This document shows, in pieces, positions 1 to 63,514 of a stretch of DNA of 64,000 nt; the stretch's first letter is position 1, and each line of letters opens with the position of its first letter. Origin of the DNA: a virus; IMG/VR virus record IMGVR_UViG_3300049016_000031, positions 7,362-71,361 of that record; one strand, given 5' to 3'. The notes below the pieces were generated by a model. That model saw nothing but the letters and a program-made list of their open reading frames with translations. It was not told the DNA's origin and ran no database searches. The position numbers and the translations under genes are program-made.

Positions 1-425
1 GCGTTCTTCGCAATTTTTACCCCGGTCCTCCGGTTTAGGGTCGACTTCAAGTTAACCGAAACGTCCCTCCGGTCTGTGGATAATATACAAAGTTCAGCAA
101 GCATGGAATCATAAACTGCTGGTGTGAATACATCGACTCCGTAGTTATTAAGAAATAGTAGGTCGAATGCGGCAAGGTTGTGACCTATTATTAATTTTCG
201 AGTACCGATAAATTTCTTTAGGGCAGGGGACATCTTCCCGCGATTGTGAATTACGACCCCGGTTTTAGATTTCAGACCGTAGAGTGAGGTAACAGCAATC
301 TTATCCCTGAAGGGGCTAAGACCACTGGTTTCGAGATCAAGGACTATCTCATCGTCACCCTGAAGCGCGCCTAAATTATCCTCACCAAGGAGCCGAATAT
401 GTATTGATTTCTTTTTTCTTGACAT
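1..425 (-). CDS. DEDD-type 3'-5' exonuclease domain protein, N-terminal part. The ORF runs off the window start and may be the proofreading N-terminus of a family-A DNA polymerase.
   Basis: Minus-strand translation from ATG 425-423 gives MSRKKKSIHIRLLGEDNLGALQGDDEIVLDLETSGL...LIIGHNLAAFDLLFLNNYG. Exo I (DxE in VLDLETSG) and Exo II (HNxxFD) motifs are present. There is no stop before position 1. The ATG overlaps the TGA of the upstream gene (ATGA). It is absent from the ORF track because no stop lies in the window. Confidence 0.55.
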   Translation of the reverse strand, partial: MSRKKKSIHIRLLGEDNLGALQGDDEIVLDLETSGLSPFRDKIAVTSLYGLKSKTGVVIHNRGKMSPALKKFIGTRKLIIGHNLAAFDLLFLNNYGVDVFTPAVYDSMLAELCILSTDRRDVSVNLKSTLNRRTGVKIAKN

Positions 426-1186
426 CACGCCACCTCCGCAATCCACGTATCATCCTTCTTAAACCAGCATGTGTGTGTGATTCCAGAAGGTGCCGGTTTC
501 CAGCACATCTCTACAAGCTCCCTTCGCCATTCAGAGCACGCCCTGAAAAAGCCGTACTGGATGGCGTATGACATCCATTGGTGCTCTATTGGTACCATTG
601 GAGCTGTTGAGTCGTAAACATGCGCCGACCCCTGATGGATGGTTACATTCCCAAGACTGAGACCTAACTCAGTGGCAACGACTTGGGCAAGACCGCCGAA
701 CATTACCAGGTCATAAGGCAGACCAAGGACTAAGTCCTGAGAGCGCATTGAGACGATGGTAATGAGGAGACCCTGGCGGATAAGGAACTGGATAGAGGTC
801 GTACATGGCTGACGCCACATTTCTACCGGGGACCGATTTCCTATTACAAGGATCGCTTCCCGGGTATCCCTATCCCTAACCAACAGGTTGAGAACAGACT
901 CCATCTGGTTAATTATAATGGGTCCATACATGAGATCACGGTGATAGAGGGATAAGTCAGCTGAGGGCGCCGCGTACTTGATGACGTTGGGATTGTACAC
1001 CCCGGCGACCATCATCATAAGTTCGGCCCAAGCTAGCTGAAGATTAAATTTGGGTCGGTAGAAGACATACCGGGGGTCGTAAGAGAACTCAGTTCCAAGA
1101 ATTTCTCTTGTCCCAAAACCCCTCGGAGACACCGGCTCCCCTAACGTTGTAACACGATTAACAAAATCACAATACGTCGGCAACAT
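425..1186 (-). CDS. Thymidylate synthase (ThyA/PF00303) family enzyme. Predicted cytosine-specific dCMP hydroxymethylase or dCMP methylase rather than canonical dTMP synthase.
   Basis: Aligns to the ThyA core: PC(T) nucleophile Cys, QF, MRSQD (Arg166/Ser167/Asp169 in E. coli numbering), LGLPYD and GSAHVY (His207/Tyr209). The specificity Asn177 of ThyA (GLPFN) is Asp here (GLPYD), as in T4 gp42 dCMP hydroxymethylase. The folate-side motifs (TTK, ELLWF) have diverged. Confidence 0.7.
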   Translation of the reverse strand: MLPTYCDFVNRVTTLGEPVSPRGFGTREILGTEFSYDPRYVFYRPKFNLQLAWAELMMMVAGVYNPNVIKYAAPSADLSLYHRDLMYGPIIINQMESVLNLLVRDRDTREAILVIGNRSPVEMWRQPCTTSIQFLIRQGLLITIVSMRSQDLVLGLPYDLVMFGGLAQVVATELGLSLGNVTIHQGSAHVYDSTAPMVPIEHQWMSYAIQYGFFRACSEWRRELVEMCWKPAPSGITHTCWFKKDDTWIAEVA

Positions 1187-1620: not shown

Positions 1621-1805
1621 AACATTTCCCTCAACTTCTCCATTTCATCAATAAATTGTTGCGCCAATAAGATAAGGCTGTTGATACATTCTCTAGCCTC
1701 CTCTAAATTTGCAATATGATGATCCTCAGTGAAATCGTAAATTACTCCACCACCTAGGGTCTCACATTCACCTGTAATTTTATCTTTTATCTGTTCTAAA
1801 GTCAA
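1617..1805 (-). CDS. small hypothetical protein (62 aa)
   Basis: ORF with 4-nt overlaps to both neighbours (operon-style coupling). No recognisable motif. Confidence 0.35.
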   Translation of the reverse strand: MTLEQIKDKITGECETLGGGVIYDFTEDHHIANLEEARECINSLILLAQQFIDEMEKLREML

Positions 1806-3910
1806 CGTTTAATTCCCCAACTCACTGACGATCTACCCCCGGACATTTCTATTCCAACAATTCGTAGATCATCTGAAATGCTATAACTACGGCGCCTGAA
1901 TTCCTCAGGAAACCAAGCACCAAACTCCCGGGTCGGATGACCCATATTCTTTGAAAATTCATTGAACGACATGTACGCTTCCCTAAGCGTCACCGACTCG
2001 TTCTTAGCTTGCCGCATTTCTTCCTTTATGAACAAATCCACGATCTCAGAGAAATCTCGGTAGCGAGCAACCGCTTGCATCGACCCCTCGGGAACTGCCC
2101 ACGCTCCCTTATTTATAAATTTCTTGACCCTCGCGTTGCCCTCAAGCGACCAGTTGAGCACGCCGGAAATCTCCCTCATAATCTTAGACCTAAGCATCAC
2201 ATCCTTATGCTTTGGCATATTCTTAAACTCAATCATCACAATCCTCGCCCACACCCCTTCAGCCTCATCAATTGTTGGAAGTGTATTTGAAGACCACATC
2301 AACTTTCCGTCGAACTCTATGTCAAAAGGCCGACCGTACGGGTGACGACCTGTTATGGGGTCCCCGCTAACCAATGCCTTGAACACCCCGGTTCGGAACC
2401 TTTGGGTCGAAAGCTCCGTGCATACAGCGAGATACGCGTCTGAAAGGGTCGCAATCTGGTACTGTGAGATGTTTTGGGATGAAATTGTAACCGCCCGAGG
2501 ACCGAACATCTTAAAGATCGTACTCAGAAAAGTAGATTTACCAGTACGTTGCTGGCCGTAGAGCCATGTCATTCGCTCGAAGAAATTTCCGGGTTGGAGG
2601 CAGTACCCGACCCACTCCTGGAGAAATTTAGCAGCGTCAGGAACAGCTTCCTCAAGAAATCGCAACCAGTTATCCGCCTTCGCCTTCGGGTCATATTCAA
2701 CAGGCATCACTCTCTTTATGTGGTCGTCTATTTCAGCGGGCCGGAACTCCTTAGTCTCTAAATTCAACACACCATTAGTGAAGCCTACAAGATTGGCGTC
2801 GGGTTTGGAGAATCCCCGGGTCGCAAGTGTGCCTTTGACCATCCTTGCAATCCCCTCCGCGTTCTTTGGCAGAGCCGGGAGACGCTTCTCTATCCCATTT
2901 TTAAGTAGGACCAACTCGTCGAGGATGTTAAAAATTCCGGAAGCAAGTGATGACAGCTCGCGAGGGTGCCAAAGTCCGTCGAAGAATTCCATCAACTGTC
3001 CCTCTTCCCAAGCCCAGCTACATTCCCCATCGACAAAGTAAGTCACAACATCCTGAATAATCGTAGCCTGCTCCCCAATGACTTCTTCCCGATACTTAAC
3101 CTCACCATCCTTGACATTGTACCTCATCAATTCAAGGAGCAATTTCTGCTTCCGACCCAGGCATTCGGAGAATTCCTTGAACGTAACCGCATCGCCGTTG
3201 ATGTGCCTCTCGTACGTCGACTTTACGACTTTAACACGATTGGAAGTCTCCTCATCCTTCATAGCGGAGCATACCAAACGGATGACCTTCTCAATCCGAA
3301 CAGGGGACCAGTCACACCTCGACGCAATCGTTGAAAACCCCAGGACAACGTTGTTGCGATTACCTGAAAACCAATACGGTATAAGGAGGCACGCCAGGAG
3401 GTGCTCCTCAATTTGCTGCGGGTCGTATCGCACGTGGTTTCCCCCGACCCATTCACAAGGAACATGCGGAACCGTTTTAATGTTCATCGACCCTGGAATG
3501 CGGAGCAAGCGGGTTATGTCTACTGCTTGCTTGTCTCCGTCTAGGCATACCTGCGCTAGACGTATAAGTCTCATAGCCTCGGGAGCCGGTATCTCCTCCT
3601 TAAGGTACATGTAGACATGAAAGCCATGCCCGGAATTTATTATAGCACTTGGCTTAAGGGCGGTCTTAGTCTCCTTAGAAATTTCAGAAATGCCGTCTAG
3701 GTCCGAAAATATTGCAGTGGCAGAGAGCACCTTGGTCGCCTCGCGTGGGCAGGCTCCGAAGTACCAATTTGATCTCGGACTCAGTTTTGGAAGTTTAGGA
3801 TTAGAACATTTAGTTTCAAATGTGCCTGTATTTTCTCCGCCGACCGACCTAATAAGTATGTTTCTTGACGAAACTGAGAACAGTTCTTTAAGAAAATCAA
3901 CTGAATTCAT
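1802..3910 (-). CDS. DNA primase-polymerase (prim-pol) / D5_N / SF3 (P4-type) helicase
   Basis: 702 aa. N-terminal prim-pol signature ...SDLDG...SGHGFHVYMYL. Central D5_N-like region. Walker A GQQRTGKSTFLS and downstream Walker B/sensor motifs typical of phage/plasmid primase-helicases. Confidence 0.8.
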   Translation of the reverse strand: MNSVDFLKELFSVSSRNILIRSVGGENTGTFETKCSNPKLPKLSPRSNWYFGACPREATKVLSATAIFSDLDGISEISKETKTALKPSAIINSGHGFHVYMYLKEEIPAPEAMRLIRLAQVCLDGDKQAVDITRLLRIPGSMNIKTVPHVPCEWVGGNHVRYDPQQIEEHLLACLLIPYWFSGNRNNVVLGFSTIASRCDWSPVRIEKVIRLVCSAMKDEETSNRVKVVKSTYERHINGDAVTFKEFSECLGRKQKLLLELMRYNVKDGEVKYREEVIGEQATIIQDVVTYFVDGECSWAWEEGQLMEFFDGLWHPRELSSLASGIFNILDELVLLKNGIEKRLPALPKNAEGIARMVKGTLATRGFSKPDANLVGFTNGVLNLETKEFRPAEIDDHIKRVMPVEYDPKAKADNWLRFLEEAVPDAAKFLQEWVGYCLQPGNFFERMTWLYGQQRTGKSTFLSTIFKMFGPRAVTISSQNISQYQIATLSDAYLAVCTELSTQRFRTGVFKALVSGDPITGRHPYGRPFDIEFDGKLMWSSNTLPTIDEAEGVWARIVMIEFKNMPKHKDVMLRSKIMREISGVLNWSLEGNARVKKFINKGAWAVPEGSMQAVARYRDFSEIVDLFIKEEMRQAKNESVTLREAYMSFNEFSKNMGHPTREFGAWFPEEFRRRSYSISDDLRIVGIEMSGGRSSVSWGIKR

Positions 3911-4002: not shown

Positions 4003-4725
4003 CTAGAAGGAGGACATTTCAGCGGCTTGCTGAAGAACCGAGTCCTTAACTTTGATCTGCTTGATGACCGGGGTGTACCACGTATTCTTTCCGGCAACGT
4101 TCTTGTTAGAAGTTACCTCAATGGCGAAGTTCCCCATCTTCAATTTCTGGATAAGCGTGTTCAGTCCGGTTGCAGGTCGCAGGCCAGCGCCACGGACGTC
4201 CCAGGCAGCTATCGACCCGTGAGTTTCTGAGTACACGCCGTATGAGTAGTAGAAGGTGCATTGCGGTTTGATGTTGTTTCCCTTCTTATCCTTTGTCCAC
4301 TGATTGAATGGGCAACGGGCACAATTGCCGCCAGGATCTCCCTCGCCGTGAATGGAATCACCACTCTGGCAAAGAATCCCGTCGTCGTCCGTGGAATAGA
4401 TTCGCCCCTTTCCAAACACAAGGGGCACCAAGATCACACTATCTACTGGGTCGGACCCTGGGAAGATGAACTGGCCCGCTTGAGCAGCACCATCTAAAAC
4501 CTCGGGTGTGCCAGGTTGCCCGATCTTAAGGCGGGGCATCTGGAGGTCTGAGCGGTCAAATTCTGGAGTTGAACTATATCGGCGTTGACTTGCTGGTACG
4601 CCGTCCTCAGTTGTTGATAATTCACCAGAAGATTGTCGAACCAAAGCTGTGCTCCCAGCAGAGTCGGCAAGATTCGCCTTCCGGGCAGCCTTGGGAGCGG
4701 GTTTTTGTGGTACTTGTTTTCTCAT
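4003..4725 (-). CDS. hypothetical Cys-cluster protein (240 aa)
   Basis: Long ORF coupled (ATGA-type overlap) to the downstream kinase gene. Contains C...CARCPFNQW...C, which is consistent with zinc binding. No family recognised. Confidence 0.45.
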   Translation of the reverse strand: MRKQVPQKPAPKAARKANLADSAGSTALVRQSSGELSTTEDGVPASQRRYSSTPEFDRSDLQMPRLKIGQPGTPEVLDGAAQAGQFIFPGSDPVDSVILVPLVFGKGRIYSTDDDGILCQSGDSIHGEGDPGGNCARCPFNQWTKDKKGNNIKPQCTFYYSYGVYSETHGSIAAWDVRGAGLRPATGLNTLIQKLKMGNFAIEVTSNKNVAGKNTWYTPVIKQIKVKDSVLQQAAEMSSF

Positions 4726-5669
4726 ATTAAATTTTTCCTTTGCAATTCTACTTTTAGACTTGAAATAGAGCTAGCATACTTTACCGACTGCGAACCCCAG
4801 CGGTAGCCGTAGGCGGGGTGCTCAATCCGCAAAGCATGCAGCTTAAGTTTCATACAAATGTGGGCGGCTACCGCTCCCACAGCAATTATTTGCTTATTCA
4901 GGAGGAATTCAGCAAAAAAATCTATGTTTGCTGTTACGTGGTCGGAGTTGGTCCATCCCCACCTCAGTGCGGAGTCACCGAACTCTCGACCAAATCGAGT
5001 CGTATAAGAACTAGTAAAGGGAAGCCAGTTATGCGACCCGTCAGGGAGGCTCCGCCGGTCGCCGATGACAATTACCGGGGCTGGGGTCGGACCGCAATAA
5101 TTCGGTGGGAGGAGTTCTGGAACCGTTTGATTCTTAAAAATCAATCTGTTAAAAGTTGTTTCAACAAGCGCTTTTAAGCTTGATTCAGTGTGGTTGTTAT
5201 TGAACACACGCCAGCCAAATTTAATACCGTACCCCTCATACTCAGCTCTCTCATCGAACGGCTCGACTGGGTGATCAGTTGCATCCCTGTGCGACCTAAG
5301 GGACTCAACGGATGGGCCGAGGAGCATTAAGCGCTCACCAGAAGATATGAGGGCGCGGTCGTAGTGCCACGCGGCAAGCCAGGGGTCATCCCAGAACACT
5401 CGTTTTGAAGAACGGGTCTCAGGCATAAGCTTAGGGTACACATACTCCGACGCCCAGGAACGGTCCCAAATTATCGCGTCGTTTGCCTGCGATGCATAAA
5501 TTTCAGACATCGGTTTGGTGTACACAAATGAGTGATGCGAGGCGTCAGGCATCCCCCAGTGAAACGCCTTTGCTTGAACGCCATTCGCAGCGCAGTGCTG
5601 CATCAAAGCATGAATAAACGTGGTTTTTCCCGCCTTTTCACAACCGTCAACTACCAGTAATTTTGACAT
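4722..5669 (-). CDS. P-loop nucleotide kinase (thymidylate-kinase-like) fused to a C-terminal uracil-DNA-glycosylase-like domain
   Basis: Probable start is MSKLLVVDGCEKAGKTTF (RBS AGGAACGAAGGA upstream); the longest ORF would start at 5723. The DRSWASEYVY block is TMPK-like. The C-terminal ~130 aa carry PVIVIGDRRSLPDGSHNWLPFTSS and IEHPAYGYRWG, resembling UDG motif A ([21 protein letters not shown]) and motif B (HPSPLS). Confidence 0.6.
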   Translation of the reverse strand: MSKLLVVDGCEKAGKTTFIHALMQHCAANGVQAKAFHWGMPDASHHSFVYTKPMSEIYASQANDAIIWDRSWASEYVYPKLMPETRSSKRVFWDDPWLAAWHYDRALISSGERLMLLGPSVESLRSHRDATDHPVEPFDERAEYEGYGIKFGWRVFNNNHTESSLKALVETTFNRLIFKNQTVPELLPPNYCGPTPAPVIVIGDRRSLPDGSHNWLPFTSSYTTRFGREFGDSALRWGWTNSDHVTANIDFFAEFLLNKQIIAVGAVAAHICMKLKLHALRIEHPAYGYRWGSQSVKYASSISSLKVELQRKNLI

Positions 5670-6033
5670 TCTTAGTCCTTCGTTCCTCAGTTCTAATTCG
5701 ATGACAATTTGCACAAACAACATCGCAACTCTTCATTTCATTTTTTACTCTATTCAAACTTCCAGTTGAAATCAACGCTCCAACATTAGCTGTTTTTATT
5801 TCTCCCGGTCGATGATCAAACTCCATGCAGCATATTGGATACATATTTTGACAATCCATACAAGGTTGATTTCGTACAGAATTAACGTAGTCTCGTAATT
5901 TTTGAATTCTTTTTGCGTGATAAACTTTATACTGCGCAAGAGCCTTTGGAGTACGCCTATACTCCTTCTTTTTTAGAGGATTATTTTTCCACCAATCTTG
6001 TTGAGCTTTTTTATGTCTCTCATCTCTAGCCAA
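5647..6033 (-). CDS. HNH / His-Me finger endonuclease (endonuclease VII-like zinc-binding nuclease)
   Basis: CMDCQ...CCMEFDHRPGE...N...CANCH, i.e. the CxxC-DH-N-CxxCH arrangement. Confidence 0.6.
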   Translation of the reverse strand: MARDERHKKAQQDWWKNNPLKKKEYRRTPKALAQYKVYHAKRIQKLRDYVNSVRNQPCMDCQNMYPICCMEFDHRPGEIKTANVGALISTGSLNRVKNEMKSCDVVCANCHRIRTEERRTKNVKITGS

Positions 6034-6979: not shown

Positions 6980-7333
6980 TTATTTTACCTGCTGACCCAA
7001 ATGTTTTTCTAATTCCTCGAGTGCTAAAAGTACGCGTTTAATCATACAGTACTCGAAAATTCCGGAAGTAGTTCGGTGTGTGGTAAAGGCAGACCAAACT
7101 TGGTTTAATAACTCGCTGGCCGCCTTCAAGAAAAGAACTACTTGACCATCAAGCAAGTTGCTTTCTTTCAAAAATACTTCAAGCTCAACAACAGCAACTT
7201 GAGCTGACTCTATCCTACTAAATGCTCTAATCAATTGCTGATTTATAAGCGCGCTCTCAATTGACTTTACTGCCAGAACAGTATTTCTACAGTTTATTTG
7301 CACTTTACAACTTAATTGTTGAGATTCAATCAT
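6980..7333 (-). CDS. hypothetical protein (117 aa)
   Basis: ORF with a 4-nt overlap to the upstream gene. Confidence 0.4.
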   Translation of the reverse strand: MIESQQLSCKVQINCRNTVLAVKSIESALINQQLIRAFSRIESAQVAVVELEVFLKESNLLDGQVVLFLKAASELLNQVWSAFTTHRTTSGIFEYCMIKRVLLALEELEKHLGQQVK

Positions 7334-8157
7334 AAATCCTCCAGTTCCTCGATTTCCCGAATCGACCGGCGAATAAACTCAGCCGGGTTTGTTAACAACT
7401 CATCGTGTAAGTGGATGGGAGGGATGAAGCGAAAGTGATTATCACCACCAAGGGCGACCCGCATAGCCTTGCCGTACTTCTCCCGACCCTCACCGGCCGG
7501 GTGGATTCCCCACGCCCAACCACCGGTCGTACCGGCTTTCTGATTCAAGTAGTTATACCCGAGTCCACGGCACACGCCTTGCGATGTTAAAGCATAGCAT
7601 GCCATAGCAAGGTCGAGCGGGGTGGTGCCGACGCGAATTGCATTTATCCCGGTTTTTCCACCCCAACCACTTAGTGCCGATAAAACGTAGAGTTCCATGG
7701 GTCGGATCGCCGAGATCGCCATCGCCATGGCCAACAAATTGATACCACGGGTCTGAAGAGATCGAACATCAATACCCCCTGAGGAAGTGACATCCACGGC
7801 AATGACGACAGGAGCGCGGTCAGACTCGACCTCTATTCGCCGCATCATGGAGTCTGGACGGCCCACAAGAGCGGACGGTATGCAGGGTCGAACGCCGCTG
7901 ACGGAATGACCCCACTCCATTGTGGGGGTCTCGATCTGGAGGACGAGATCCTCGAGAAGTCCCTCAGCGCGGTGGACATTGGTTGAGTCTCCAAATTGTA
8001 CCTTGCGCCGAACCTCTTGTGCGGTTTCACCGGTCCACGACCCACGGAGCTTGTCCTCGGTAATTAAAGGAATAGCGGCAGCGCCAAACTCGGTTAAGGA
8101 GTCCCACCAAAATACTTTGGTCTCGTGCTTTAGGATTTGTTTGGTCTCAGTTCTCAT
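7330..8157 (-). CDS. hypothetical protein (275 aa), possible vWA-like (MIDAS-like DxTxS) domain
   Basis: VVIAVDVTSSGG resembles the vWA MIDAS motif DxSxS. The assignment is weak. Confidence 0.45.
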   Translation of the reverse strand: MRTETKQILKHETKVFWWDSLTEFGAAAIPLITEDKLRGSWTGETAQEVRRKVQFGDSTNVHRAEGLLEDLVLQIETPTMEWGHSVSGVRPCIPSALVGRPDSMMRRIEVESDRAPVVIAVDVTSSGGIDVRSLQTRGINLLAMAMAISAIRPMELYVLSALSGWGGKTGINAIRVGTTPLDLAMACYALTSQGVCRGLGYNYLNQKAGTTGGWAWGIHPAGEGREKYGKAMRVALGGDNHFRFIPPIHLHDELLTNPAEFIRRSIREIEELEDL

Positions 8158-8709: not shown

Positions 8710-9744
8710 TTAATGCCCAGCAAATGGATTTGTTGGAACCGACCGGGGCCTTGGACCCTTGAAGAACAGGTTACTTGCAACGACATTCAGTGCTGTGCGA
8801 TCCGCGACCTCGAGGTTGTCGTTGTGTGACGCCATATCGGTTGCGTAATTGAAGATGTCGTAGGCTGGAACGCCGGTCGACGCGAGGTCTTTCCAGGTAC
8901 TGGGTTGGCTGAAGATGTCATCTAACTCAAGGTGCTCCGACTTGAGGTACGCCGCGTTTATTTTCGAGGTATTAAACTTACGGTCGAACTTCTCCAAATT
9001 AACCAGAGACCGAACAGACTGCATCTCGCCGACTGTTGCCGGGGTGTCCATGAGCCTCTTGGAGTTAGCGACGACCATGGAGGCGAGCTCACGGTCACGG
9101 AGCCTTAATTGGCGACGGACTAGAGCACCGACCCCGACCAACCAACGCTTAGCAGACTGCTCAACGGACGTCATACCGTTGGTGCAAATCATCCTCAGGA
9201 AGGAGGGGCTGTACCACCCATTCTTCTGACCGAGGTTGAGGCCGATACCGGTCTTCCAAAAGTCCTTGGCGCCGACCCTGACGTTGGTTGTCTCATCTAT
9301 AAGCAGAGCAGAGATAGTAAGCTTGTCGATATCAAAGTAGCATCGGTTGAGGGTCGTGTCCTTTTTCTCAGAGAGGTAGGCATCGATGAAGTCGAGTTGT
9401 GAGTCGAAGTTGAGGCGATTGCCGTCCGACTTCTCAGGAATAAGCACACGCTTAACAGTATCGTCCTCCCGGTCGATTACTGCAACTAGCTCCTGGCGAT
9501 TTCTGAACTTGGCAACCGCTGATGAGAATTGACGCCACTGCTGCGCAAGATCGGACTCCTCCTTCTTACCGACCGAAAGGGCACCGTATTGTAACTTGAA
9601 GATGTTGCAGAGGTCGGTCGCGGATTGACCAACAAGTTTGCGTTCCCCCATTTGGAGCCCCGAGGACTTGGAAAGTGAGAGCTGGGTCGCGTCCAGGGGT
9701 ACGACCCGGAGATTCTCGATTTCTTTACGAACTGCGTTTAACAT
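8710..9744 (-). CDS. hypothetical protein (344 aa)
   Basis: Long clean ORF. No motif recognised. Confidence 0.5.
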   Translation of the reverse strand: MLNAVRKEIENLRVVPLDATQLSLSKSSGLQMGERKLVGQSATDLCNIFKLQYGALSVGKKEESDLAQQWRQFSSAVAKFRNRQELVAVIDREDDTVKRVLIPEKSDGNRLNFDSQLDFIDAYLSEKKDTTLNRCYFDIDKLTISALLIDETTNVRVGAKDFWKTGIGLNLGQKNGWYSPSFLRMICTNGMTSVEQSAKRWLVGVGALVRRQLRLRDRELASMVVANSKRLMDTPATVGEMQSVRSLVNLEKFDRKFNTSKINAAYLKSEHLELDDIFSQPSTWKDLASTGVPAYDIFNYATDMASHNDNLEVADRTALNVVASNLFFKGPRPRSVPTNPFAGH

Positions 9745-9826
9745 TTTGTTTCCTCCTAGAATTTTTAACTACCCTATAGTACGACAAACCGGATGTCAAG
9801 TAAACATTTATTTTATCAGCTTTGGA

Positions 9827-10526: not shown

Positions 10527-11034
10527 TATTAAAAACCTCCCCAAATTTCAAAGGCAATACTACTACGTGCGTTGCACCCTTGGCTTCCAAAGCCTTCCGA
10601 CATTCGTCTTCAGTTTGACCTACGACACTCGCTTGCTCAAAACCATTAATTACTGCACCTCCGAGAAAGAGGGCCGGGGGCGAAACAGGGGTCGCCACTT
10701 GAAACCACTGATCTGAAAGAAGAAGTTCAGCGGATACAGAAAGGACGCGGTGGTAGTTGCCATAGGCAAACATCTTAAGGGTACCGGTTCCACCACACGC
10801 CCGGTGTATGTACGACCCCTCCGACCAAGAGGGGTGTGACACATATCCCCCTCGGTTCATTACGTACATTGTCTGGGTCCAATCCATGTTCTGGTTCAAT
10901 GGAATGTCTTCGTTTGTGAATTTAATCATTTTTTCTCCCTTATGCCTCTCCCCGCGGCGCCCTCTGGAAGTTCTTGGCAGACGTCCAAACGCCGCGGGAG
11001 AGGGGTGTTCAGTCCCACAGGGGACCAAAATCAA
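10519..11034 (-). CDS. hypothetical protein (171 aa)
   Basis: ORF overlapping the upstream ATPase gene by 4 nt. Confidence 0.5.
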   Translation of the reverse strand: MILVPCGTEHPSPAAFGRLPRTSRGRRGERHKGEKMIKFTNEDIPLNQNMDWTQTMYVMNRGGYVSHPSWSEGSYIHRACGGTGTLKMFAYGNYHRVLSVSAELLLSDQWFQVATPVSPPALFLGGAVINGFEQASVVGQTEDECRKALEAKGATHVVVLPLKFGEVFNNE

Positions 11035-12011
11035 AAAGCCGTTACGACATATTCAGCCAACTCCTGCCAATTCTCCGGGTTAGCGTGCTGAATCTCCAAG
11101 ACTTTCAAGAAGGTGCGAATGTTGAGATCCCCGATGTTCTCCTTATGCTTGTCAATGAGGTCAAGTGCAGCGGTCTTGTCATCCGGGGCAATGTCCGGCC
11201 GGATGGCTCCGGATATTTGCTTGATGCGGTCAATCTTTTCTTGAGGGGTCATTGAGACGTCAACGAAGAGGCAGCGGGATATGACTGCTTGGTCTAACTC
11301 CGCGAGGCTAAGATTGGAGACAAAGATGATTTTCCCCTTAAACTCAAACGACATCGGCAAGTCATCATCCTTCCGAGCGAGTTCGGTGAGCCACGAAATG
11401 CGACGGGTATCGTAGGAGTCCAGGGCGCCCTTGAGGATTGATACAGTCGTGGGGTTATCCCAAACCGAGTCACAGTCATCAAATATAATGATCTTGTCCT
11501 TACAATTCCATAAAAGTCTGTAAAGACTTTTAGGGGTGGTGAAACCCTTGACGACCTTGAAGTGGCCGGGGATCTCCATTCCAAGTTCCTGCAACTCCTC
11601 GGCGCCCTCAACGTCATCAACGTTGTCGAGGCCCGCGGCGGTGAGGCGCTTGAAGACGGTGTAGGACTTTCCGAGCCCTCCCGACCCGGTAATAATTACG
11701 GATTTTGACTCACCGGTGACAACCATATCGACCACAGCTTCAATAAAGTCAAAGCGGGTATTAACGTCAAAGCGGGATTGCTTGACCTCGAGGCCGTGGT
11801 CCTTGCGCGCCGAACGCTGTTGACTGGCTCGCATACCGTCAACCGAAATGATTTTGCGATAGAGGCGCTTGGCGCCGACATAAACGACCGGCATGTTGTA
11901 CCTATCAGACCAAGAGTCGTAGGTCGCTTGGACCTCCTCACCGTCAACCTTAACGGTAACCGGCGTTCCCTGACCGGCACTCTCCAAGAGTGATTTTATC
12001 GAACTTGACAT
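11031..12011 (-). CDS. P-loop/AAA-type ATPase (replication- or recombination-associated)
   Basis: Walker A ITGSGGLGKSYT, Walker B IIIFDDCD and a sensor-like FVSN. Confidence 0.6.
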   Translation of the reverse strand: MSSSIKSLLESAGQGTPVTVKVDGEEVQATYDSWSDRYNMPVVYVGAKRLYRKIISVDGMRASQQRSARKDHGLEVKQSRFDVNTRFDFIEAVVDMVVTGESKSVIITGSGGLGKSYTVFKRLTAAGLDNVDDVEGAEELQELGMEIPGHFKVVKGFTTPKSLYRLLWNCKDKIIIFDDCDSVWDNPTTVSILKGALDSYDTRRISWLTELARKDDDLPMSFEFKGKIIFVSNLSLAELDQAVISRCLFVDVSMTPQEKIDRIKQISGAIRPDIAPDDKTAALDLIDKHKENIGDLNIRTFLKVLEIQHANPENWQELAEYVVTAF

Positions 12012-14587: not shown

Positions 14588-15871
14588 TCATCCCCCCATT
14601 AAAGCCTTGCGGCTCTCGACTGAAATTTTTGCAAAAATTGTCGCCTCTAGGGCTTCCTGGTGAGTGAACCCATTCTCAAGCATCAGGGCACCGTTCACGG
14701 TAGCCCGGGGGCTGATTACGACCTTCAGGCCACGGTTTGAGGCTCGGAGCCGGAATTGTTGGACGGACTCGACCCACTGGGGAAAATTGGGAACCAAGCG
14801 TCGCTCGAGAACCTCGTCGTACGGCCAAGCGAGCTGGACGAAACGGTCGAGGAAGGCGGCGTCCATCTTTGAGCGTCCCACGTACTCGGTACCTCCGCCG
14901 TAACCCCACGTGTTTGCCGCGGCGACGCAGCGTAAATTTTTGTGCCGAGGGGTTGGCTTTGAGCAACCGGGAAAATCAGCGACGTCACCGGCCAGAGCTG
15001 CATTGAACGCAAGGACGGCGGAGGGAAGTGAGGCGTCGACTTCATCGAAGAGGTACAAGCCGCCGTTTGTATATGCCTCCCGGAAGGCAGTGGAGACGAT
15101 GCGACCCTGGGCGTCAATGAAGCCGGACAGTTTGTACTCTGAGTCTATTGCGCCGTTAAAGTAGAAGTCTAGGCCGAGGGCATCGGCGACCTGGCGGGCG
15201 GCTGTGGTCTTACCAGAACCGGCCGGGCCTGCGACCCAGACATTGATTCCGCAGGACACCATCCGGAGGAGATGGTCGAAGCACTCGTGGACCGACCCGG
15301 ATATGACCTTGGTCTTCTTATTAATGATTACGTGGTGCTCTACGACCTGGACCTTGAGGAGTTCTTCCTTGACCGCCTCGCGGGCTAGTTCAATGAATTC
15401 TTTTCCATTAAACTCATACTGGTCCGCTACAAGTTCGCGAACTGGTTTGTCGAGCTTTTCAAGAATATCAAGAACCATCGCCTTAGTGTCCACGACTTGG
15501 AGTTTGGACTTGTCCACGTGCTCGTCTGCCGACGTCCAAGCGGACTTGAGACGCCTATCAGCTTCTTTTAATTCTGTAGCAGCAATTTGTGTTCGCACAA
15601 TTTCATACCGGAGGTCCATATCATCCTTAAATTTAGCACCGTTTAATGTATCAATTCCAAAGCGCTCAGCGCGAGACCTTAGGGAAGAACCCTTCAAAAC
15701 GCGCACGAGGCGCCACGCTTCTACAAAAGCTGGTGGAAATTTGTGCGATAAGCACTCAGTATGGATGAAGTCCCCGTCAAGGTTACCAGACCTAGAGATG
15801 GTAGAGACGTTCGGTGAGAAGCGATTGCCACACGCCGGACATATTGTTGCAAACTTAGCTATGACACTCAT
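14588..15871 (-). CDS. AAA_5 (MoxR/CbbQ/McrB-like) ATPase with N-terminal zinc ribbon
   Basis: CPACGNRF...HTEC zinc ribbon at the N-terminus. VWVAGPAGSGKTT Walker A and LYLFDEVD Walker B, typical of AAA_5. Confidence 0.7.
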   Translation of the reverse strand: MSVIAKFATICPACGNRFSPNVSTISRSGNLDGDFIHTECLSHKFPPAFVEAWRLVRVLKGSSLRSRAERFGIDTLNGAKFKDDMDLRYEIVRTQIAATELKEADRRLKSAWTSADEHVDKSKLQVVDTKAMVLDILEKLDKPVRELVADQYEFNGKEFIELAREAVKEELLKVQVVEHHVIINKKTKVISGSVHECFDHLLRMVSCGINVWVAGPAGSGKTTAARQVADALGLDFYFNGAIDSEYKLSGFIDAQGRIVSTAFREAYTNGGLYLFDEVDASLPSAVLAFNAALAGDVADFPGCSKPTPRHKNLRCVAAANTWGYGGGTEYVGRSKMDAAFLDRFVQLAWPYDEVLERRLVPNFPQWVESVQQFRLRASNRGLKVVISPRATVNGALMLENGFTHQEALEATIFAKISVESRKALMGG

Positions 15872-19010: not shown

Positions 19011-19439
19011 CAGTAAGTCGTAATTTTGTCACCTTTCGAAACAACTGTCACCTTTTTATACACCAATTGGTATCTTAACAAAAGCAAAATTTTTCTGGTG
19101 ACTTCGACGCTGTGCCTAGGTTGTGTCAAGCCCGGGTTGGTCCCGACGCCCGACGCCCGACCCGGAAATGAGTAAAAAGAGATACATACAATACTAAAAA
19201 ACTGTACTTGACAAGTTTTCACTTCTGGAGATTTGGACATTTTTATTATTTCTTAATTTTCGAAAAAAGAAAGTATGTTTGGGTGAGGTTTTTTAGTATT
19301 TCATGCATTTTAGCTAGTAGCTTTCGAAAAAGTCAGCGCGCGCCGTCGTCAGCATTCCACGATTTGCGACCCACAATTCACTCTGCAGCGAACGTTGTTC
19401 GGCATACTGAACTGTAAGTATATGTAAAGGTCGGCGCGC

Positions 19440-19545
19440 GTCTGGTGCTCCGCGATCGCAGATCAGCGTATGATGTTCCAAGATCGCTGATAATCGCTCT
19501 GCGAACGGCAATCAGCGGTCGGGGATCGGCAATCAGCGATCAATG
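19440..19545. repeat. GATC-dense block with 4x (G/C)ARTCAGCG repeats
   Basis: Six GATC sites in about 100 bp. Repeats GCAGATCAGCG, GGCAATCAGCGG, GGCAATCAGCGATC and GATAATCGC. Confidence 0.5.
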
Positions 19546-19674
19546 ATCGACCCACCGGCAAGCGGCGCGGCACAGCGCCTGGTAAAAATTGCGCCATTAT
19601 CCCCTCCGCTATGCGGTCGAGCCTGTCGGCGCTTCGGCTTGTAATTGGGTCGGAAGTGGGAGGGGCCGGAGCCC

Positions 19675-19914
19675 CTATTCGTCCTCGAGTTCAAAGCAAT
19701 CCCACGGCGGAAAGATATTCGTGCAGATTCTACGGATCCAGTCTTGTATAGGTTCTGGCTCCCCGGCTATCGGGTCGTAGTTGATGTGGGTCTCCCGGTT
19801 CAGGATTAGCCGAAACACCTTGGAGTCATCTACAGCCGTAGTATTATTTGTGATAGTGATTTCGTCGTTGTCCTCGTCTAGTTGAACGACGGTGATGTCT
19901 AGCAATTTTCTCAT
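19675..19914 (-). CDS. small early protein
   Basis: Start MRKLLDITV with an AAGGAGGAG RBS. ATGA overlap with the upstream gene. Confidence 0.45.
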   Translation of the reverse strand: MRKLLDITVVQLDEDNDEITITNNTTAVDDSKVFRLILNRETHINYDPIAGEPEPIQDWIRRICTNIFPPWDCFELEDE

Positions 19915-20201
19915 TTCTCCTCCTTTGCAATAGCGGCGCAAGCCGCGCAGGGGTCGTTACCGAGGGGGTACCCCACCCGGAATTCTTTGTAGTGGCCGCA
20001 ATCTGCGAGGATTTTGGCTCGCCGAATGGGCCACCACCTCTCCTTGGTTACGCCGACCTCAGCGTAATTATCATGAAAGACGATGTCCGCCTCCTGCTCC
20101 CGGTGGTATGCCGATTTGGCGGGCTGGTAGAAGACCTCACCGGTCTCCCGGCTCCAGACGTACCGTTTCCGGTACTGGTCAGTTTCGATCGACAAAATCA
20201 T
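19911..20201 (-). CDS. small early protein (96 aa), Cys/His-containing
   Basis: TAAGGAGATAA RBS. Contains CGHY...CAAC. Confidence 0.45.
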   Translation of the reverse strand: MILSIETDQYRKRYVWSRETGEVFYQPAKSAYHREQEADIVFHDNYAEVGVTKERWWPIRRAKILADCGHYKEFRVGYPLGNDPCAACAAIAKEEK

Positions 20202-21754: not shown

Positions 21755-22129
21755 TCAGTTCAATTCAGCCTGGAGTGCCTTGACCAACTCGGTCTTGGCC
21801 TTTGACCATCTCTTGATGGGCGTCAGCCCCCGTTCCGTTCTCAGGAAGTTCAGCTCGCTGAGCATGGATCCGGTGTTGGTCCAGTCGACCTCCGCCCTTG
21901 CGGGCGCTTCCGGGAACGCCATCTTGATCAGCTTGCTGACCGTGTACGCGTGCCGTCCGCCCTCGACCTCTTTCGAAGCCAGAATTACAAACGGCGAGTT
22001 CGTATTGGGCCGGCCCCAGGCTACGATGTTGCCCTTTCTGGTGTTCCGGACACGTCCTTCACGGTTGATCTCATAGAGACTCGCGAATTCAGGAATCGGA
22101 ACTGGAACCCATTGTGATGTATTGTTCAT
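21755..22129 (-). CDS. small early protein (about 124 aa from MNNTSQW)
   Basis: GGAGGAAAATCAA RBS before ATG 22129, preceded by element A3. Confidence 0.5.
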   Translation of the reverse strand: MNNTSQWVPVPIPEFASLYEINREGRVRNTRKGNIVAWGRPNTNSPFVILASKEVEGGRHAYTVSKLIKMAFPEAPARAEVDWTNTGSMLSELNFLRTERGLTPIKRWSKAKTELVKALQAELN

Positions 22130-22152
22130 TTGATTTTCCTCCGACATGATTT

Positions 22153-26022: not shown

Positions 26023-26841
26023 ATGTTATCACTCCGCGAATTCATCCTTGAATACGACCACCTGAACACTCGGCGCCTCCTGGGTCGGCCCTCCCCGTGG
26101 TCCCAGGACATAGTCCTCCAAAGTTACCGCTTCGGTAACTTCCGCCGGGAGCTCGACCGCACGAATCGCCTCCTCACCACCTTCTTCGGGTCGTCTCGGC
26201 TCACCGGTACACTGGTCGGCAACTTGGTGTCACACCGGATGGTCTCGCAGCCCTCCTTCACCTCCGCCTACGGCATCTTTGGGTCGTACTCGGATTTTGA
26301 ACGGGTGTATAACGACGCCATGAAAAGCGGAATACCCACCCGGCCGTCATCGTTCATGTCTTGCCGGTCTGCAGACCGGTTTCTTGACGCAATTCAAGAC
26401 TCCTGGGACAACTCTCTCACACTCACAAACAAGATTCAGCAGAAGCCGACCCTCGAATCCGTGTACCGCCTCTTTGCCCCCGTCCTCGGCAAATTCACCT
26501 CGTGGCAGCTCGCCCTGGACTTCCTTATGCTCCACCTGGTCGGCAATCCAGGGGAGTGGGCGCACATCGGCCCAGGGTCGGGAACGGCCCTCCTCGCTCT
26601 TGGGCTAAAGCCTGACCTTCGGTCGATCCTTGACCTCCTCCTTATTATCAATGAGTCACCAAAGCAACTCGACCTCCGGGTCGACGAGCTGGAGGGGGCA
26701 CTCTGCGAATACTCGAAGTACATTCGCCTTTGCAACACTCAGTTCCCGGGCAAGTTCCGAAACTTCACCCCCTCCTCGGAACACTTATTCCCTGTCCCCA
26801 CGGACTCGGTCTTGAAGGAGTTTTATGCTTCGCATATTTAA
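26023..26841 (+). CDS. hypothetical protein (272 aa)
   Basis: Clean ORF. No motif recognised. Confidence 0.5.
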   Translation: MLSLREFILEYDHLNTRRLLGRPSPWSQDIVLQSYRFGNFRRELDRTNRLLTTFFGSSRLTGTLVGNLVSHRMVSQPSFTSAYGIFGSYSDFERVYNDAMKSGIPTRPSSFMSCRSADRFLDAIQDSWDNSLTLTNKIQQKPTLESVYRLFAPVLGKFTSWQLALDFLMLHLVGNPGEWAHIGPGSGTALLALGLKPDLRSILDLLLIINESPKQLDLRVDELEGALCEYSKYIRLCNTQFPGKFRNFTPSSEHLFPVPTDSVLKEFYASHI

Positions 26842-27762: not shown

Positions 27763-27865
27763 CGCTTCTAAAACAATCACGCTCCCTGGCGCTCTCGTCC
27801 TTTGCTGCCTAATTATTTGCGTAGAGTGGATTGCCGGGGAGTGGATTAGGGGACTCTTTAAGTGA
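27740..27865 (+). CDS. small membrane protein (about 41 aa)
   Basis: Sequence MEFNRIIDASKTITLPGALVLCCLIICVEWIAGEWIRGLFK. Overlaps both neighbours. Confidence 0.3.
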   Translation: MEFNRIIDASKTITLPGALVLCCLIICVEWIAGEWIRGLFK

Positions 27866-28995
27866 AAATAATTGATTGCCAACTCCTAGCCGGTTCCGGA
27901 CTTGTGGCTGCTAAATCTCTTGATTTTCAAATACAGGGTCGGATGTCCAATGGCTTCGGCGACGACGTTGTCCAGGCCAACAAGCAACTGTTAGGGGACA
28001 TTCCAATTTGGGGTGCCAATTTCTGGAAACCTCTTAACGGTGACGTCGTCGCGGGCTGTCCGCCCTGCTCAGGTTGGTCTCAGCTCAACTTCCGGGGTCG
28101 AGGTGCGCATGCTGCAGCTCATAAGTATACCTGGGACCTGATCCGGTATGCCGCTTCCTGCAATAACGGAAAGGGTCCCAAAGTAGTTGTCTGGGAATGC
28201 GTTCAGGCCGCGTACCGCGAGGGCTCCGCCCTTATGCAAGAGTATTTCGATTACCTTTGCTCCGCGACAGGGTCGAAGTACACTCTCACTAATGTCCTGA
28301 TGTCCGGTGCCTCAGTAGGCTCGGCATCTGAACGCAAGCGCTACTTCTGGGTCGCCTCAAAGGTCCCATTCGGTGTGTCGGTCCCGGACCTCGTTCGACC
28401 AGTCACAGTCGGAGATCGCCTCTACACCGACCCGGTGTTCACCCCCGACGTTCTGGGTACCTGGCCGCATTCTACCATCCTCCACTCCGACCAGCCCTCA
28501 AAGATTCTTCAAATGGTAGTAGACACGCATAGAGCGGCGGGTTGGCACGAGGGTTGGACCCTCCGGGACGCTGCGTTCCACCTCCTCAAATCGGATAAAC
28601 TTAGTGGAGCCCAGAAGCGACGGTACTTCGACGACCATGGTTGCTGGATCGGCTTCCCAGGCCCAAAGATTCTGGATTCCTCAAAACCCTGCCCTGTAAT
28701 TACTGGAGGTGCGGCTGCGGACTTTCTTCACCCCACTGAGCATCGCTTTTTGACTGTTTATGAATTCGGGCGGCTCATGGGGTATCCAAAGGATTGGGTG
28801 TGGCCCGGGACCTCGGTCCGAAAAACGGTCGAGCTTATTGGCAAGGGAGTGCCGGTGGAAAGTTGGCACTGGGTTCTTAACAATATTAAACAGTCCCTAG
28901 AGGGAAATCCAGGCGCCCTGCGTGGGTCGGTCGTCGATGTGACGTACGCCTGGCAGGGTTTGCGTAAAATAAAAATATCAGAGCAGATAAAATAA
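27862..28995 (+). CDS. C5 pyrimidine methyltransferase-family protein (DNA cytosine-5 MTase-like)
   Basis: GTG start. Motif I-like LLAGSGL, motif IV GCPPCSGWSQ (PC catalytic Cys), motif VI WECVQ (ENV-like), motif VIII SERKRYFWVAS, motif X LIGKGVPV. Confidence 0.65.
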   Translation: MKIIDCQLLAGSGLVAAKSLDFQIQGRMSNGFGDDVVQANKQLLGDIPIWGANFWKPLNGDVVAGCPPCSGWSQLNFRGRGAHAAAHKYTWDLIRYAASCNNGKGPKVVVWECVQAAYREGSALMQEYFDYLCSATGSKYTLTNVLMSGASVGSASERKRYFWVASKVPFGVSVPDLVRPVTVGDRLYTDPVFTPDVLGTWPHSTILHSDQPSKILQMVVDTHRAAGWHEGWTLRDAAFHLLKSDKLSGAQKRRYFDDHGCWIGFPGPKILDSSKPCPVITGGAAADFLHPTEHRFLTVYEFGRLMGYPKDWVWPGTSVRKTVELIGKGVPVESWHWVLNNIKQSLEGNPGALRGSVVDVTYAWQGLRKIKISEQIK

Positions 28996-30683: not shown

Positions 30684-31403
30684 TTGGACATCGGTTGTGG
30701 CAAAGAGGTTCCCCTCGCTAAGTTGCTGTACGTTAATAAGATGTCCCCTGCCTCGTACCTCGGCATTGACGCTAACAAGCTGGAGGTTCCGGAAATGCTG
30801 ACTACGACCCCAAAGCCGTGGCTTTCGCTTATGTCAGCTGACGTTACCAAAATAAACGCAAAACAATTTTATGAGAATGTCTTAAAGCCAAACGTAATCG
30901 TTTCATTTGAAATGCTGGAGCATGTCACTCCGCGAAAAGCCACACAGACCCTCCGGTTCATTCACTCGGTTCTCGATCCGGCCGGAAGGGCGTACATTTC
31001 CACTCCGTGTTTCAACGGGTCGGCTGCGGGTAACCACATCAACGAGATGACGTACCACGCCCTCGGTGCACTTATTGAGGATTTGGGTTTCGCAATCGTG
31101 GAACACTATGGGACGTTTGCCTCCATCCGAGATTATCACACCCAGTTAGCCTTAGATAGTCATGAGGATGAAAATCCGCAGTGTATGACGGCGTATCAGG
31201 CCTTTTTGAGGCTTCGTGATTATTACGACACCAACGTCCTCGCGACGATTTTCGCACCCCTTTACCCCCAATTTTCCAGGAACTGCCTCTGGGTCCTCTC
31301 GAACCAAATTCCGGTCGGGTACCAGCGGAGGTTCCCTTCCCTCAAGAAGGTCCCAGGACCCTGGTCGTCATCTGAGCAGTGGCGGCAATTAGGAGGAAAA
31401 TAA
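30684..31403 (+). CDS. class I SAM-dependent methyltransferase
   Basis: TTG start. Motif I LDIGCGKE at the N-terminus, plus acidic motif II/III-like blocks. Confidence 0.55.
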   Translation: MDIGCGKEVPLAKLLYVNKMSPASYLGIDANKLEVPEMLTTTPKPWLSLMSADVTKINAKQFYENVLKPNVIVSFEMLEHVTPRKATQTLRFIHSVLDPAGRAYISTPCFNGSAAGNHINEMTYHALGALIEDLGFAIVEHYGTFASIRDYHTQLALDSHEDENPQCMTAYQAFLRLRDYYDTNVLATIFAPLYPQFSRNCLWVLSNQIPVGYQRRFPSLKKVPGPWSSSEQWRQLGGK

Positions 31404-63170: not shown

Positions 63171-63514
63171 AGTTTTGCTATTATGACTGGGCAGTCTAAT
63201 TTATGCTCTCCGTCAACTCCATTACACAAGATACAGATTAACGTGGCTCCATGACGTGTGGACTTAATTGATAGCACAGACTGCACCAGAGAATAAAACA
63301 ACTCCCGGCTGGGCGAGCACTCTGCGGCCCTCCAGCTTTCCATTGCGCAAGCTATTTCTACAGCTTCATCAATTTTACGGAGGGGTTGGCACTTGTGAAC
63401 TTCTGAAAAGTGCGCCCACAAGCGCACAACAATAGGCCCAATCGGGTCGCGACCCAAGAGTATAAATTTTGGTTCATTTTCTTTCGCTTCAGCGTGGTAA
63501 TCTTTTCTTTTCAT
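63152..63514 (-). CDS. hypothetical Cys-containing protein (120 aa)
   Basis: ORF with a 4-nt overlap to the dCMP deaminase gene. Confidence 0.4.
   Translation of the reverse strand: MKRKDYHAEAKENEPKFILLGRDPIGPIVVRLWAHFSEVHKCQPLRKIDEAVEIACAMESWRAAECSPSRELFYSLVQSVLSIKSTRHGATLICILCNGVDGEHKLDCPVIIAKLCLEEF

Follow-up and report, generated by a model that had tools for sequence, protein, structure and literature searches.

On the minus strand of the IMG/VR virus record IMGVR_UViG_3300049016_000031, we identified a gene whose product joins a thymidylate kinase (TMPK)-like P-loop kinase to a minimal domain of the uracil-DNA glycosylase (UDG) superfamily. The gene lies in the 64,000-nucleotide stretch analyzed here (positions 7,362 to 71,361 of that record; hereafter the window), and we refer to the protein and its relatives as Kin-UDG. 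The explanation that we favor, with about an even chance of being correct, is that Kin-UDG combines a kinase for modified dCMP with a uracil-type DNA glycosylase or base-flipping module at the replisome. An earlier note on this DNA, made from the letters alone, had placed a TMPK-like P-loop kinase and a UDG-like C-terminal domain in one protein, and this is borne out by conserved homologues, by Foldseek comparison of an AlphaFold2 (AF2) model and by Pfam UDG matches among the homologues. One of the roles that it suggested, a base-excluding accessory on a deoxynucleoside monophosphate (dNMP) kinase, is the option now favored, at the same even chance and as a predicted function.

In the open reading frame (ORF) list of the window, positions 4722 to 5723 form a single ORF without interruption. 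The earlier note had this ORF right but gave no strand, and all the peptides that it quoted, including DGCEKAGKTT, WDRSWASEYVY and HPAYGYR, are present in the translation. Read from the ATG at 5723, the product has 333 residues and the gene overlaps an upstream HNH gene (5647-6033). Because this ATG lies inside the HNH gene, whereas the ATG at 5669 (MSKLLVVDG...) is preceded by AAGGA 9-10 nucleotides upstream and yields a product of 315 residues plus a TGA stop that is 100% identical to the JGI gene call P0001, we place the gene at 4722-5669, with ATG 5669 as the probable start. The gene and its parts are as follows.

4722-5669, minus strand: Kin-UDG fusion gene with its probable start, 315 residues plus TGA stop, JGI protein P0001.
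5124-5669, minus strand: N-terminal P-loop kinase domain, residues 1-182, TMPK/PPK2-type fold.
5619-5648, minus strand: Walker A motif (P-loop) DGCEKAGKTT, from the homologue alignment.
5436-5468, minus strand: WDRSWASEYVY, a DR(S/Y)-type motif at the end of strand 3, from the homologue alignment.
4725-5123, minus strand: C-terminal minimal UDG-superfamily domain, residues 183-315, from fold and motif alignment.
5049-5075, minus strand: motif A equivalent VIVIGDRRS, opposite (V/I)GE(A/G)PG of family 4 UDG.
5010-5027, minus strand: WLPFTS with F218, opposite the Phe of family 4 'RPFVG'.
4947-4958, minus strand: GWTN with N241, opposite the conserved Asn of family 4 UDG (ITN/ICN).
4800-4820, minus strand: motif B equivalent HPAYGYR with H284-P285 and R290, opposite HP(S/A)YLLR.

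The HNH endonuclease gene at 5647-6033, also on the minus strand (PHROG 3106 at 6e-23), adjoins the Kin-UDG start. In the relatives examined, this position is taken by a Methyltransf_23 gene or by other genes, so that the HNH gene may have been inserted as a mobile element.

The AF2 model of the full-length protein consists of two tightly packed domains (predicted local distance difference test score, pLDDT, 95.2; predicted template modeling score, pTM, 0.91). Thymidylate kinases and PPK2 enzymes were on top when the model was compared with the Protein Data Bank (PDB) by Foldseek, with E-values of 1e-5 to 1e-4 over approximately 200 columns and target-normalised TM scores of 0.5-0.63. A sequence-profile search of the PDB matched PPK2 at 1.4e-4 (residues 2-70 only) and TMPK at 4e-3, and a PHROG search also gave a weak TMPK match. 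Kin-UDG shares with TMPK (PF02223/TIGR00041) and PPK2 the overall fold, an acidic P-loop residue and a DR(S/Y) motif. The TMPK-type features present are the NMP-kinase fold, the P-loop acid E11, the DR motif D69-R70 and the lid arginine R128; the spacing from the P-loop to DRS is PPK2-like, and PPK2 profile alignments extend through WDRSWASEYVY. By hhalign, E11 stands opposite E12 of E. coli Tmk, in the sequence GLEGAGKTT.

Invariance of the P-loop and DRS residues was assessed in an alignment of 56 homologues, and residue frequencies, here and below, were counted over 169 full-length representatives of 50%-identity clusters. E11, K12, A13, G14 and K15 were invariant, as were D69, R70, W72 and Y78, and the invariant or near-invariant patterns of the family comprise the Walker A GPEKAGKT, WDRSW-SE--Y, the lid R-(D/T)-x-x-D and E140. 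The K15/D69/R70 triad was intact in 156 of the 169 representatives (92%), and the lid R128 was present in 144. The kinase domain is acidic (family isoelectric point, pI, 5.9). Judged by its residues, the N-terminal domain looks like an active kinase.

Stand-alone relatives of this domain occur in phages with modified cytosine. The hhalign comparison matched it to RB69 gp45 (probability 96.9%, E 1.4e-10, approximately 107 columns including the P-loop and the DR motif) and to a 'thymidylate kinase' of the metagenomic podophage MW202510 (probability 96.5%, approximately 110 columns), whose gene lies between that of a nucleoside triphosphate pyrophosphatase (NTP-PPase) and those of a 'pyrimidine hmase' and a dCMP deaminase. 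In modified-cytosine phages, genes for TMPK-like 'nucleotide kinases' such as RB69 gp45, DLP3 gp78 and RL38J1 gp214 lie next to those of ThyA homologues; gp45 is the kinase of the 5-hydroxycytosine/arabinose cluster, and the activities of all these kinases are themselves predicted (PMC13326640). Like Kin-UDG, the gp45-type kinases carry a P-loop DGPxxAGKTT and a DR-x-x-x-S-x-x-VYG motif and are encoded next to a ThyA homologue with Asn177 changed to Asp; unlike Kin-UDG, to which they are approximately 25% identical, they have approximately 180 residues and no C-terminal domain. Stand-alone kinase relatives of 180-190 residues show the motif as DRLWPSELVYG and DRGYISNWVYG, and P0056, P0059 and P0060 are homologues of Kin-UDG that consist of the N-terminal part only.

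The C-terminal domain has the four-stranded parallel alpha/beta UDG fold within approximately 130 residues (133), compared with 190-220 residues in family 4 UDG, UdgX and family 5 UDGb (1UI0, 1L9G/1VK2, 4ZBX, 6AIL and 2D3Y). When its profile was searched against PDB sequences, the top four matches were family 4 UDGs (E 0.008-0.12), and the motifs were in register: VGE/D with GE(A/G)PG, LPF with RPF, WTN with ITN, then ACG, and HPAxLYR with HP(S/A)YLLR. The correspondence to UDG motifs A and B drawn in the earlier note is therefore real, but the family 4 motifs (GE[AG]PG...PF / N / HP[AS]YLLR) fit better than those of family 1. Where family 4 has GEAPG, Kin-UDG has GE/D-x-R. A column alignment to 4ZBX, 1L9G and 1UI0 found D204, F218, N241, H284 and P285 all in the window protein. 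The Pfam UDG model PF03167 was matched by 20 of the 56 homologues on their own sequences (best 6.5e-6); neither the window protein nor its C-terminal domain matched it at E <= 1.

We take D204 to be the motif A acid, F218 to be the base-stacking residue, N241 to read uracil N3/O4, H284 to be the O2-stabilising His and R290 to be the motif B loop Arg. The motif A acid, Asp in the window protein, is Glu in most homologues, and one or the other was present in 135 of the 169 representatives. Equivalents of F218 and N241 were kept in 152 and 142, respectively, and motif B was kept at H284 in 139, at P285 in 150 and at R290 in 140. Phe, Asn and His were all kept in 116 (69%). The domain is basic, with a pI of 9.3 in the window protein and a family median of 8.9. 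Because a complete uracil-type pocket is kept in a basic domain, DNA binding and base flipping would be its most likely activities. The approximately 25-residue Cys-containing insert that family 4 has after the Asn was absent from the alignments; since the family consensus also has a single conserved Cys (position 264), a 4Fe-4S cluster would not be expected. Assignment of the domain to the aGPT-Pplase/ADDT families (PF18724, PF18723) was rejected, as it is alpha/beta rather than all-helical and gave no match to these Pfam models; aGPT-Pplases have a helix-hairpin-helix glycosylase-like fold (PMC8989533).

The state of the pocket bears on a different explanation, in which the C-terminal domain is non-catalytic and serves as a UDG-derived tether to DNA or to a replisome partner (such as the translationally coupled Cys4 protein encoded beside Kin-UDG, or the polymerase PolA) or as a scaffold for the kinase, the kinase being the sole enzyme. 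Full-size C-terminal domains persist, together with the kinase motifs, where Phe, Asn or His has been lost (L013, L018, L021, L023, L024 and L026), and the incomplete retention of the pocket triad, the rigid and compact model (pTM 0.91) and the ATGA overlap with a conserved partner gene all fit such a role. However, the window protein and most of the family keep every uracil-pocket and motif B wedge residue, and vaccinia D4 is still an active glycosylase, so that we regard a purely structural domain as unlikely. Rare stand-alone UDG-like proteins of approximately 148 residues were found in metagenomes (P0177 and P0178); in these degenerate copies, other residues occupy the positions of the pocket Asn, His or Phe.

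The fusion is conserved across a large family. A first search of 5.8 billion proteins yielded 60 relatives, approximately 55 of which were full length (295-345 residues) and aligned end to end. The profile of the 133 C-terminal residues, searched against 1.84 billion cluster representatives, matched 149 proteins at E <= 1e-10. Nearly all of these were the same fusion (290-345 residues, with the domain at approximately 170-300), and the few short matches were fragments or degenerate stand-alone copies. The full-length fusions thus found amount to the 169 cluster representatives used above. Because the single-ORF, two-domain architecture is conserved in all of them, a sequencing frameshift or two-gene artefact, a risk raised in the earlier note, is excluded. 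No homologue of the full protein was found by tblastn among 50,697 cultured phage records, which gave weak matches to the N-terminal half only, in Lak phages and XG4, and no relative was found in the representative bacterial and archaeal genomes of 185,579 prokaryotic species; the family is therefore confined to uncultured phage contigs.

The earlier note had not recognised the kinase-UDG architecture, and we likewise found no description of it in the annotations of Pfam, NCBIfam and PHROGs, among cultured phages or in the literature that could be searched. The combination of kinase and UDG, the Fe-S-free minimal UDG and the near-obligate fusion appear to be undescribed; both domains are from known superfamilies, and phage UDG fusions and small kinases adjacent to ThyA are already known. 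A UDG domain is fused to the phage family-A polymerase in YerA41, phiLo and the SP-15 group (PDB 9QHS; bioRxiv 10.1101/2025.03.26.645540). Those phages modify thymidine and the partner is a polymerase, whereas the partner in Kin-UDG is a kinase; by analogy, the role proposed for the C-terminal domain would mirror that of the active PolA-fused UDG domains.

The genes linked to Kin-UDG point to the modification of cytosine. Three of them, all in the window, are needed for the argument.

425-1186, minus strand: ThyA homologue, catalytic Cys kept, Asn177 changed to Asp, Asp169 kept, Arg at position 143.
4003-4725, minus strand: partner gene of 240 residues with four invariant Cys (the Cys4 protein), its ATG overlapping the Kin-UDG TGA (ATGA).
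63511-63948, minus strand: dCMP deaminase, PHROG 174 at 3.4e-34.

The ThyA homologue of the window gave a partial Pfam match at 1e-16 and lies far below the ThyA equivalog cut-off (NCBIfam, 53.6 bits vs 327). Cys146, Asp169 and the change of Asn177 to Asp were found in 22 of the 22 ThyA homologues linked to Kin-UDG, and position 143 was polar in all but one. The change of Asn177 to Asp, a polar residue at 143 and Asp169 are diagnostic of a dCMP substrate and of a hydroxymethyl product rather than a methyl or hydroxy one (PMC13326640). On these residues, the window protein is predicted to be a dCMP C5-modifying enzyme of the hydroxymethylase type, not a thymidylate synthase, and because every linked ThyA homologue carries the Asp, the pathway is probably directed at cytosine and not at uracil. 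The earlier note's description of this gene as a ThyA-like hydroxymethylase was reasonable, with the substrate probably cytosine rather than uracil, and its distance of four genes from Kin-UDG is correct; the intervening genes are at 1189-1620, 1617-1805, 1802-3910 and 4003-4725. The first of these (minus strand), directly downstream of the ThyA homologue, encodes a DUF4406 or nucleoside 2-deoxyribosyltransferase-like protein (PHROG 355 at 1e-19). This type of gene was found only in the window phage and its closest relative (L008), and its product could act as a dNMP N-hydrolase to eliminate a canonical nucleotide.

The linkage of Kin-UDG to the Asp177 ThyA homologue is obligate. In every related locus, Kin-UDG lies inside an early replication module, where the usual neighbors are a D5/VapE-type primase-helicase, the ThyA homologue, a family-A polymerase and a Methyltransf_23 protein, often with a dCMP deaminase and with a MazG/PRA-PH or dUTPase_2 pyrophosphatase. 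PolA is a separate gene of 570-630 residues in these loci. The Cys4 partner gene (230-290 residues, motif C..S...G.G.PGG.C..CP...C..Y.Y) adjoins Kin-UDG in nearly all of them, usually with a stop/start overlap; its product had no match in the PDB by sequence or profile, in cultured phages or in NCBIfam, and a faint Pam3_Gp34 match only in Pfam. The dCMP deaminase also occurs in several related loci, and if the contig is circularly permuted, that of the window and the ThyA homologue lie in one early block on the minus strand.

The same context speaks to the simplest alternative, namely that an ordinary thymidylate kinase and an ordinary UDG were fused by chance in a phage with normal T and C. 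The weak TMPK matches in Pfam and PHROG and the presence of a dCMP deaminase and a ThyA homologue in the module would agree with this. The kinase, however, scores far under the TMPK thresholds, and the linked ThyA homologues all carry Asp at Asn177 and score far under the ThyA equivalog cut-offs. One relative (L009) has ThyX (8953-9753) besides its Asp177 ThyA homologue (19199-19966), and another (L011) has a canonical thymidylate kinase (15062-15703) besides Kin-UDG; because relatives carry these as well, the pair of ThyA homologue and kinase is not one for ordinary dTMP synthesis. A fusion found in 169 cluster representatives is, moreover, no chance event, and we consider this alternative extremely unlikely.

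We therefore return to a kinase for modified dCMP joined to a uracil-type glycosylase or base-flipping module. Under this explanation, Kin-UDG would be a bifunctional protein of the phage replication and nucleotide-supply module. The ThyA homologue would convert dCMP to 5-hydroxymethyl-dCMP (hm-dCMP), and the N-terminal domain would be the cognate mononucleotide kinase that phosphorylates this nucleotide, its most likely substrate, to the diphosphate, as T4 gp1 does for hm-dCMP. The diphosphate would then pass through the dNTP to PolA by a T4-like route, while the pyrophosphatase would remove dCTP and dUTP and the deaminase would feed dUMP. In most related loci no second dNMP kinase is visible within approximately 10 kb on either side of Kin-UDG, and neither the 64-kb window nor approximately 41 kb of the closest relative encodes another kinase-like P-loop protein; because most loci show no other dNMP kinase, a kinase for modified dCMP would otherwise be missing. 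The T4 pathway to the hydroxymethylated dCTP (gp1 with gp42, gp56 and cd) resembles this scheme in the phosphorylation of hm-dCMP after an Asp177 ThyA homologue, and T4 and the Kin-UDG loci both have a dCMP deaminase and an NTP pyrophosphatase. T4 gp1 differs in having no second domain, and no T4-like match was found in the tblastn search against cultured phages.

The basic C-terminal domain would bind DNA, flip uracil-type bases and probably excise them. Its candidate targets are U derived from a dUMP/dUTP pool enlarged by the dCMP deaminase, and deaminated C or 5-hydroxymethylcytosine (hmC); excision would exclude them from the modified genome, and through the fusion the two activities would stay side by side at the replisome. 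Where the pocket has decayed, the domain may survive as a structural or DNA-tethering module. From the conserved folds and residues we infer the hm-dCMP and uracil-type substrates, and we likewise infer that a phage making hmC would need a uracil-type pocket at all.

The latter point is one of several that weigh against this explanation. The kinase scored 16.8-17 bits with the TMPK model PF02223 (cut-off 27), over residues 7-32 only, 18.4 bits with TIGR00041 (cut-off 83.25) and 17.1 bits with the PPK2 model TIGR03709 (cut-off 247), and canonical membership in either family was rejected because the scores are below the family thresholds. Compared with bona fide TMPKs, the sequence aligns over the P-loop only, and the remaining likeness is structural. 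The segment between strands 2 and 3 has approximately 27 residues in the AF2 secondary structure, and appears to be shorter than the segment that covers the base in TMPK. Because this base-covering segment appears shortened in the model, the acceptor site may be more open than that of TMPK. For the C-terminal domain, 31% of the representatives lack at least one pocket residue, and glycosylase chemistry is for this reason not a universal role of the domain. This subfamily almost never occurs without the kinase, for which a purely independent glycosylase is not an obvious explanation.

Several of these features would suit a kinase acting on DNA, and the window holds a gene that makes such an activity worth weighing.

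26023-26841, plus strand: HMUDK_hel, a clade-1 aGPT-Pplase-family protein of 272 residues, Pfam PF18723 at 9.4e-21.

With a cut-off of 25 bits for the Pfam model, HMUDK_hel scored 74.8. M6 gp55 is a member of this family. The window protein has the invariant LCEY motif with its Cys-Glu pair and lacks a P-loop, and HMUDK_hel is also present in the closest relative of the window phage. Its nearest homologue, P0200, is reported on a contig equal in length (69,896 bp) to that of P0002, the nearest Kin-UDG relative. The window gene is followed, just upstream of the terminase, by genes for a C5-cytosine DNA methylase (27862-28995, plus strand) and a Methyltransf_23 protein (30684-31403, plus strand), and the closest relative (L029, 10001-13627) has the same order of HMUDK_hel, Endonuclease_7, DNA_methylase and Methyltransf_23; this run looks like a late DNA-modification cassette. 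No canonical 5-hydroxymethyl-dU DNA kinase (5-HMUDK) or ADDT (PF18724) gene was seen in the 64-kb window.

The explanation that follows is a DNA-level nucleobase kinase, in which the UDG module would flip a 5-hydroxymethylpyrimidine (hmC or 5-hydroxymethyluracil, hmU) from duplex DNA and the kinase would phosphorylate its hydroxymethyl group, so that a downstream transferase is given a leaving group; such a protein would do the work of 5-HMUDK with other components. We consider this distinctly unlikely, and give no better chance to its extension in the window phage, where the product would feed HMUDK_hel, independently of 5-HMUDK and possibly on cytosine. It gains from HMUDK_hel with its Cys-Glu pair in the window and in the closest relative, from the position of Kin-UDG as the only kinase-like P-loop protein in those sequences, from the near-constant fusion of the C-terminal subfamily to the kinase, from the separate canonical TMPK of one relative and, in the model, from the apparently shortened base-covering segment. 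The C5 edge of the base is buried in the UDG pocket, which counts against phosphorylation there. Conservation is also lower in the pocket than among the kinase residues, several lineages that keep the kinase have a degenerate pocket, and the homologues of the kinase are stand-alone enzymes of mononucleotide modules, N-terminal-only forms included.

Likeness to 5-HMUDK ends at the P-loop. The 5-HMUDK model PF18748 gave no match for Kin-UDG at E <= 1, whereas M6 gp54 matched it at 7.7e-18, and hhalign to gp54 covered 39 P-loop columns only (probability 84%); membership was rejected on both counts. The 5-HMUDKs (PF18748; M6 gp54, ViI gp67) resemble Kin-UDG as P-loop kinases in phage base modification with an HMUDK_hel partner-family gene, which the window also has, but they lack a UDG domain, and the ThyA homologues linked to Kin-UDG look dCMP-directed. 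HMUDK_hel family members accompany the DNA kinase in known systems, and such a kinase does not require a second domain for base flipping, since M6 gp54 (187 residues, one domain) suffices together with gp51 in a reconstituted system (PMC8989533). Among IMG/VR contigs, 17 with Kin-UDG and 67 with HMUDK_hel did not overlap, and Kin-UDG was present in none of the 67 HMUDK_hel loci; co-occurrence as a family-wide rule was rejected, and the link is limited to one lineage. Phosphorylation of a base substituent in DNA, the 5-HMUDK-like role put forward in the earlier note, is consequently no longer the leading reading, given the missing PF18748 match and a kinase triad kept more widely than the pocket. 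Its analogy to thymidine hypermodification is weakened by Asp at Asn177 in every linked ThyA homologue and is kept alive by HMUDK_hel in the window.

The close packing of the two domains in the model raises a further alternative, in which the ligand of the UDG-like pocket is not DNA but a free pyrimidine nucleotide or base. The pocket would then confer specificity on the kinase, regulate it or channel its substrate, for example through detection of dUMP or hm-dUMP. The apparently shortened base-covering region of the modeled kinase and the near-obligate fusion are compatible with such a site. A basic domain with an Arg after motif B fits DNA binding, the stand-alone kinase homologues work without a C-terminal domain, and action on free nucleotides is not known to us for any member of the UDG superfamily, so that this alternative is very unlikely.

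Phages that replace or decorate their pyrimidines rank among the main sources of new DNA chemistry and of DNA that resists restriction and CRISPR. The Kin-UDG carriers, well over 100 uncultured phage lineages, appear to make modified cytosine. With at least 169 clusters at 50% identity, the family is a marker of a large group of phages in which C5-modified cytosine is the predicted product and the kinase step is physically tied to a base-flipping fold. If the C-terminal domain is an active glycosylase, pool control would be coupled to uracil exclusion in a single polypeptide, and the domain would to our knowledge be the smallest UDG scaffold without an Fe-S cluster. If the DNA-level kinase were true, it would represent another route, of independent origin, by which hydroxymethylpyrimidines in DNA become activated. 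Under either reading, Kin-UDG offers an assay target and a genomic marker for mining phages with modified DNA.

Other genes were noted in the window. A second HNH gene lies at 21755-22147. The early region carries minus-strand genes at 14588-15871, 11031-12011, 7330-8157 and 8710-9744, which encode an AAA/MoxR-like ATPase (PHROG 249, 'porphyrin biosynthesis'), a P-loop ATPase (PHROG 1250), a DUF7192 protein and a protein of 344 residues, respectively. The 344-residue protein has a homologue in the same module of L008, and a Pfam DUF932 protein occupies a comparable position in the early region of the relatives examined.

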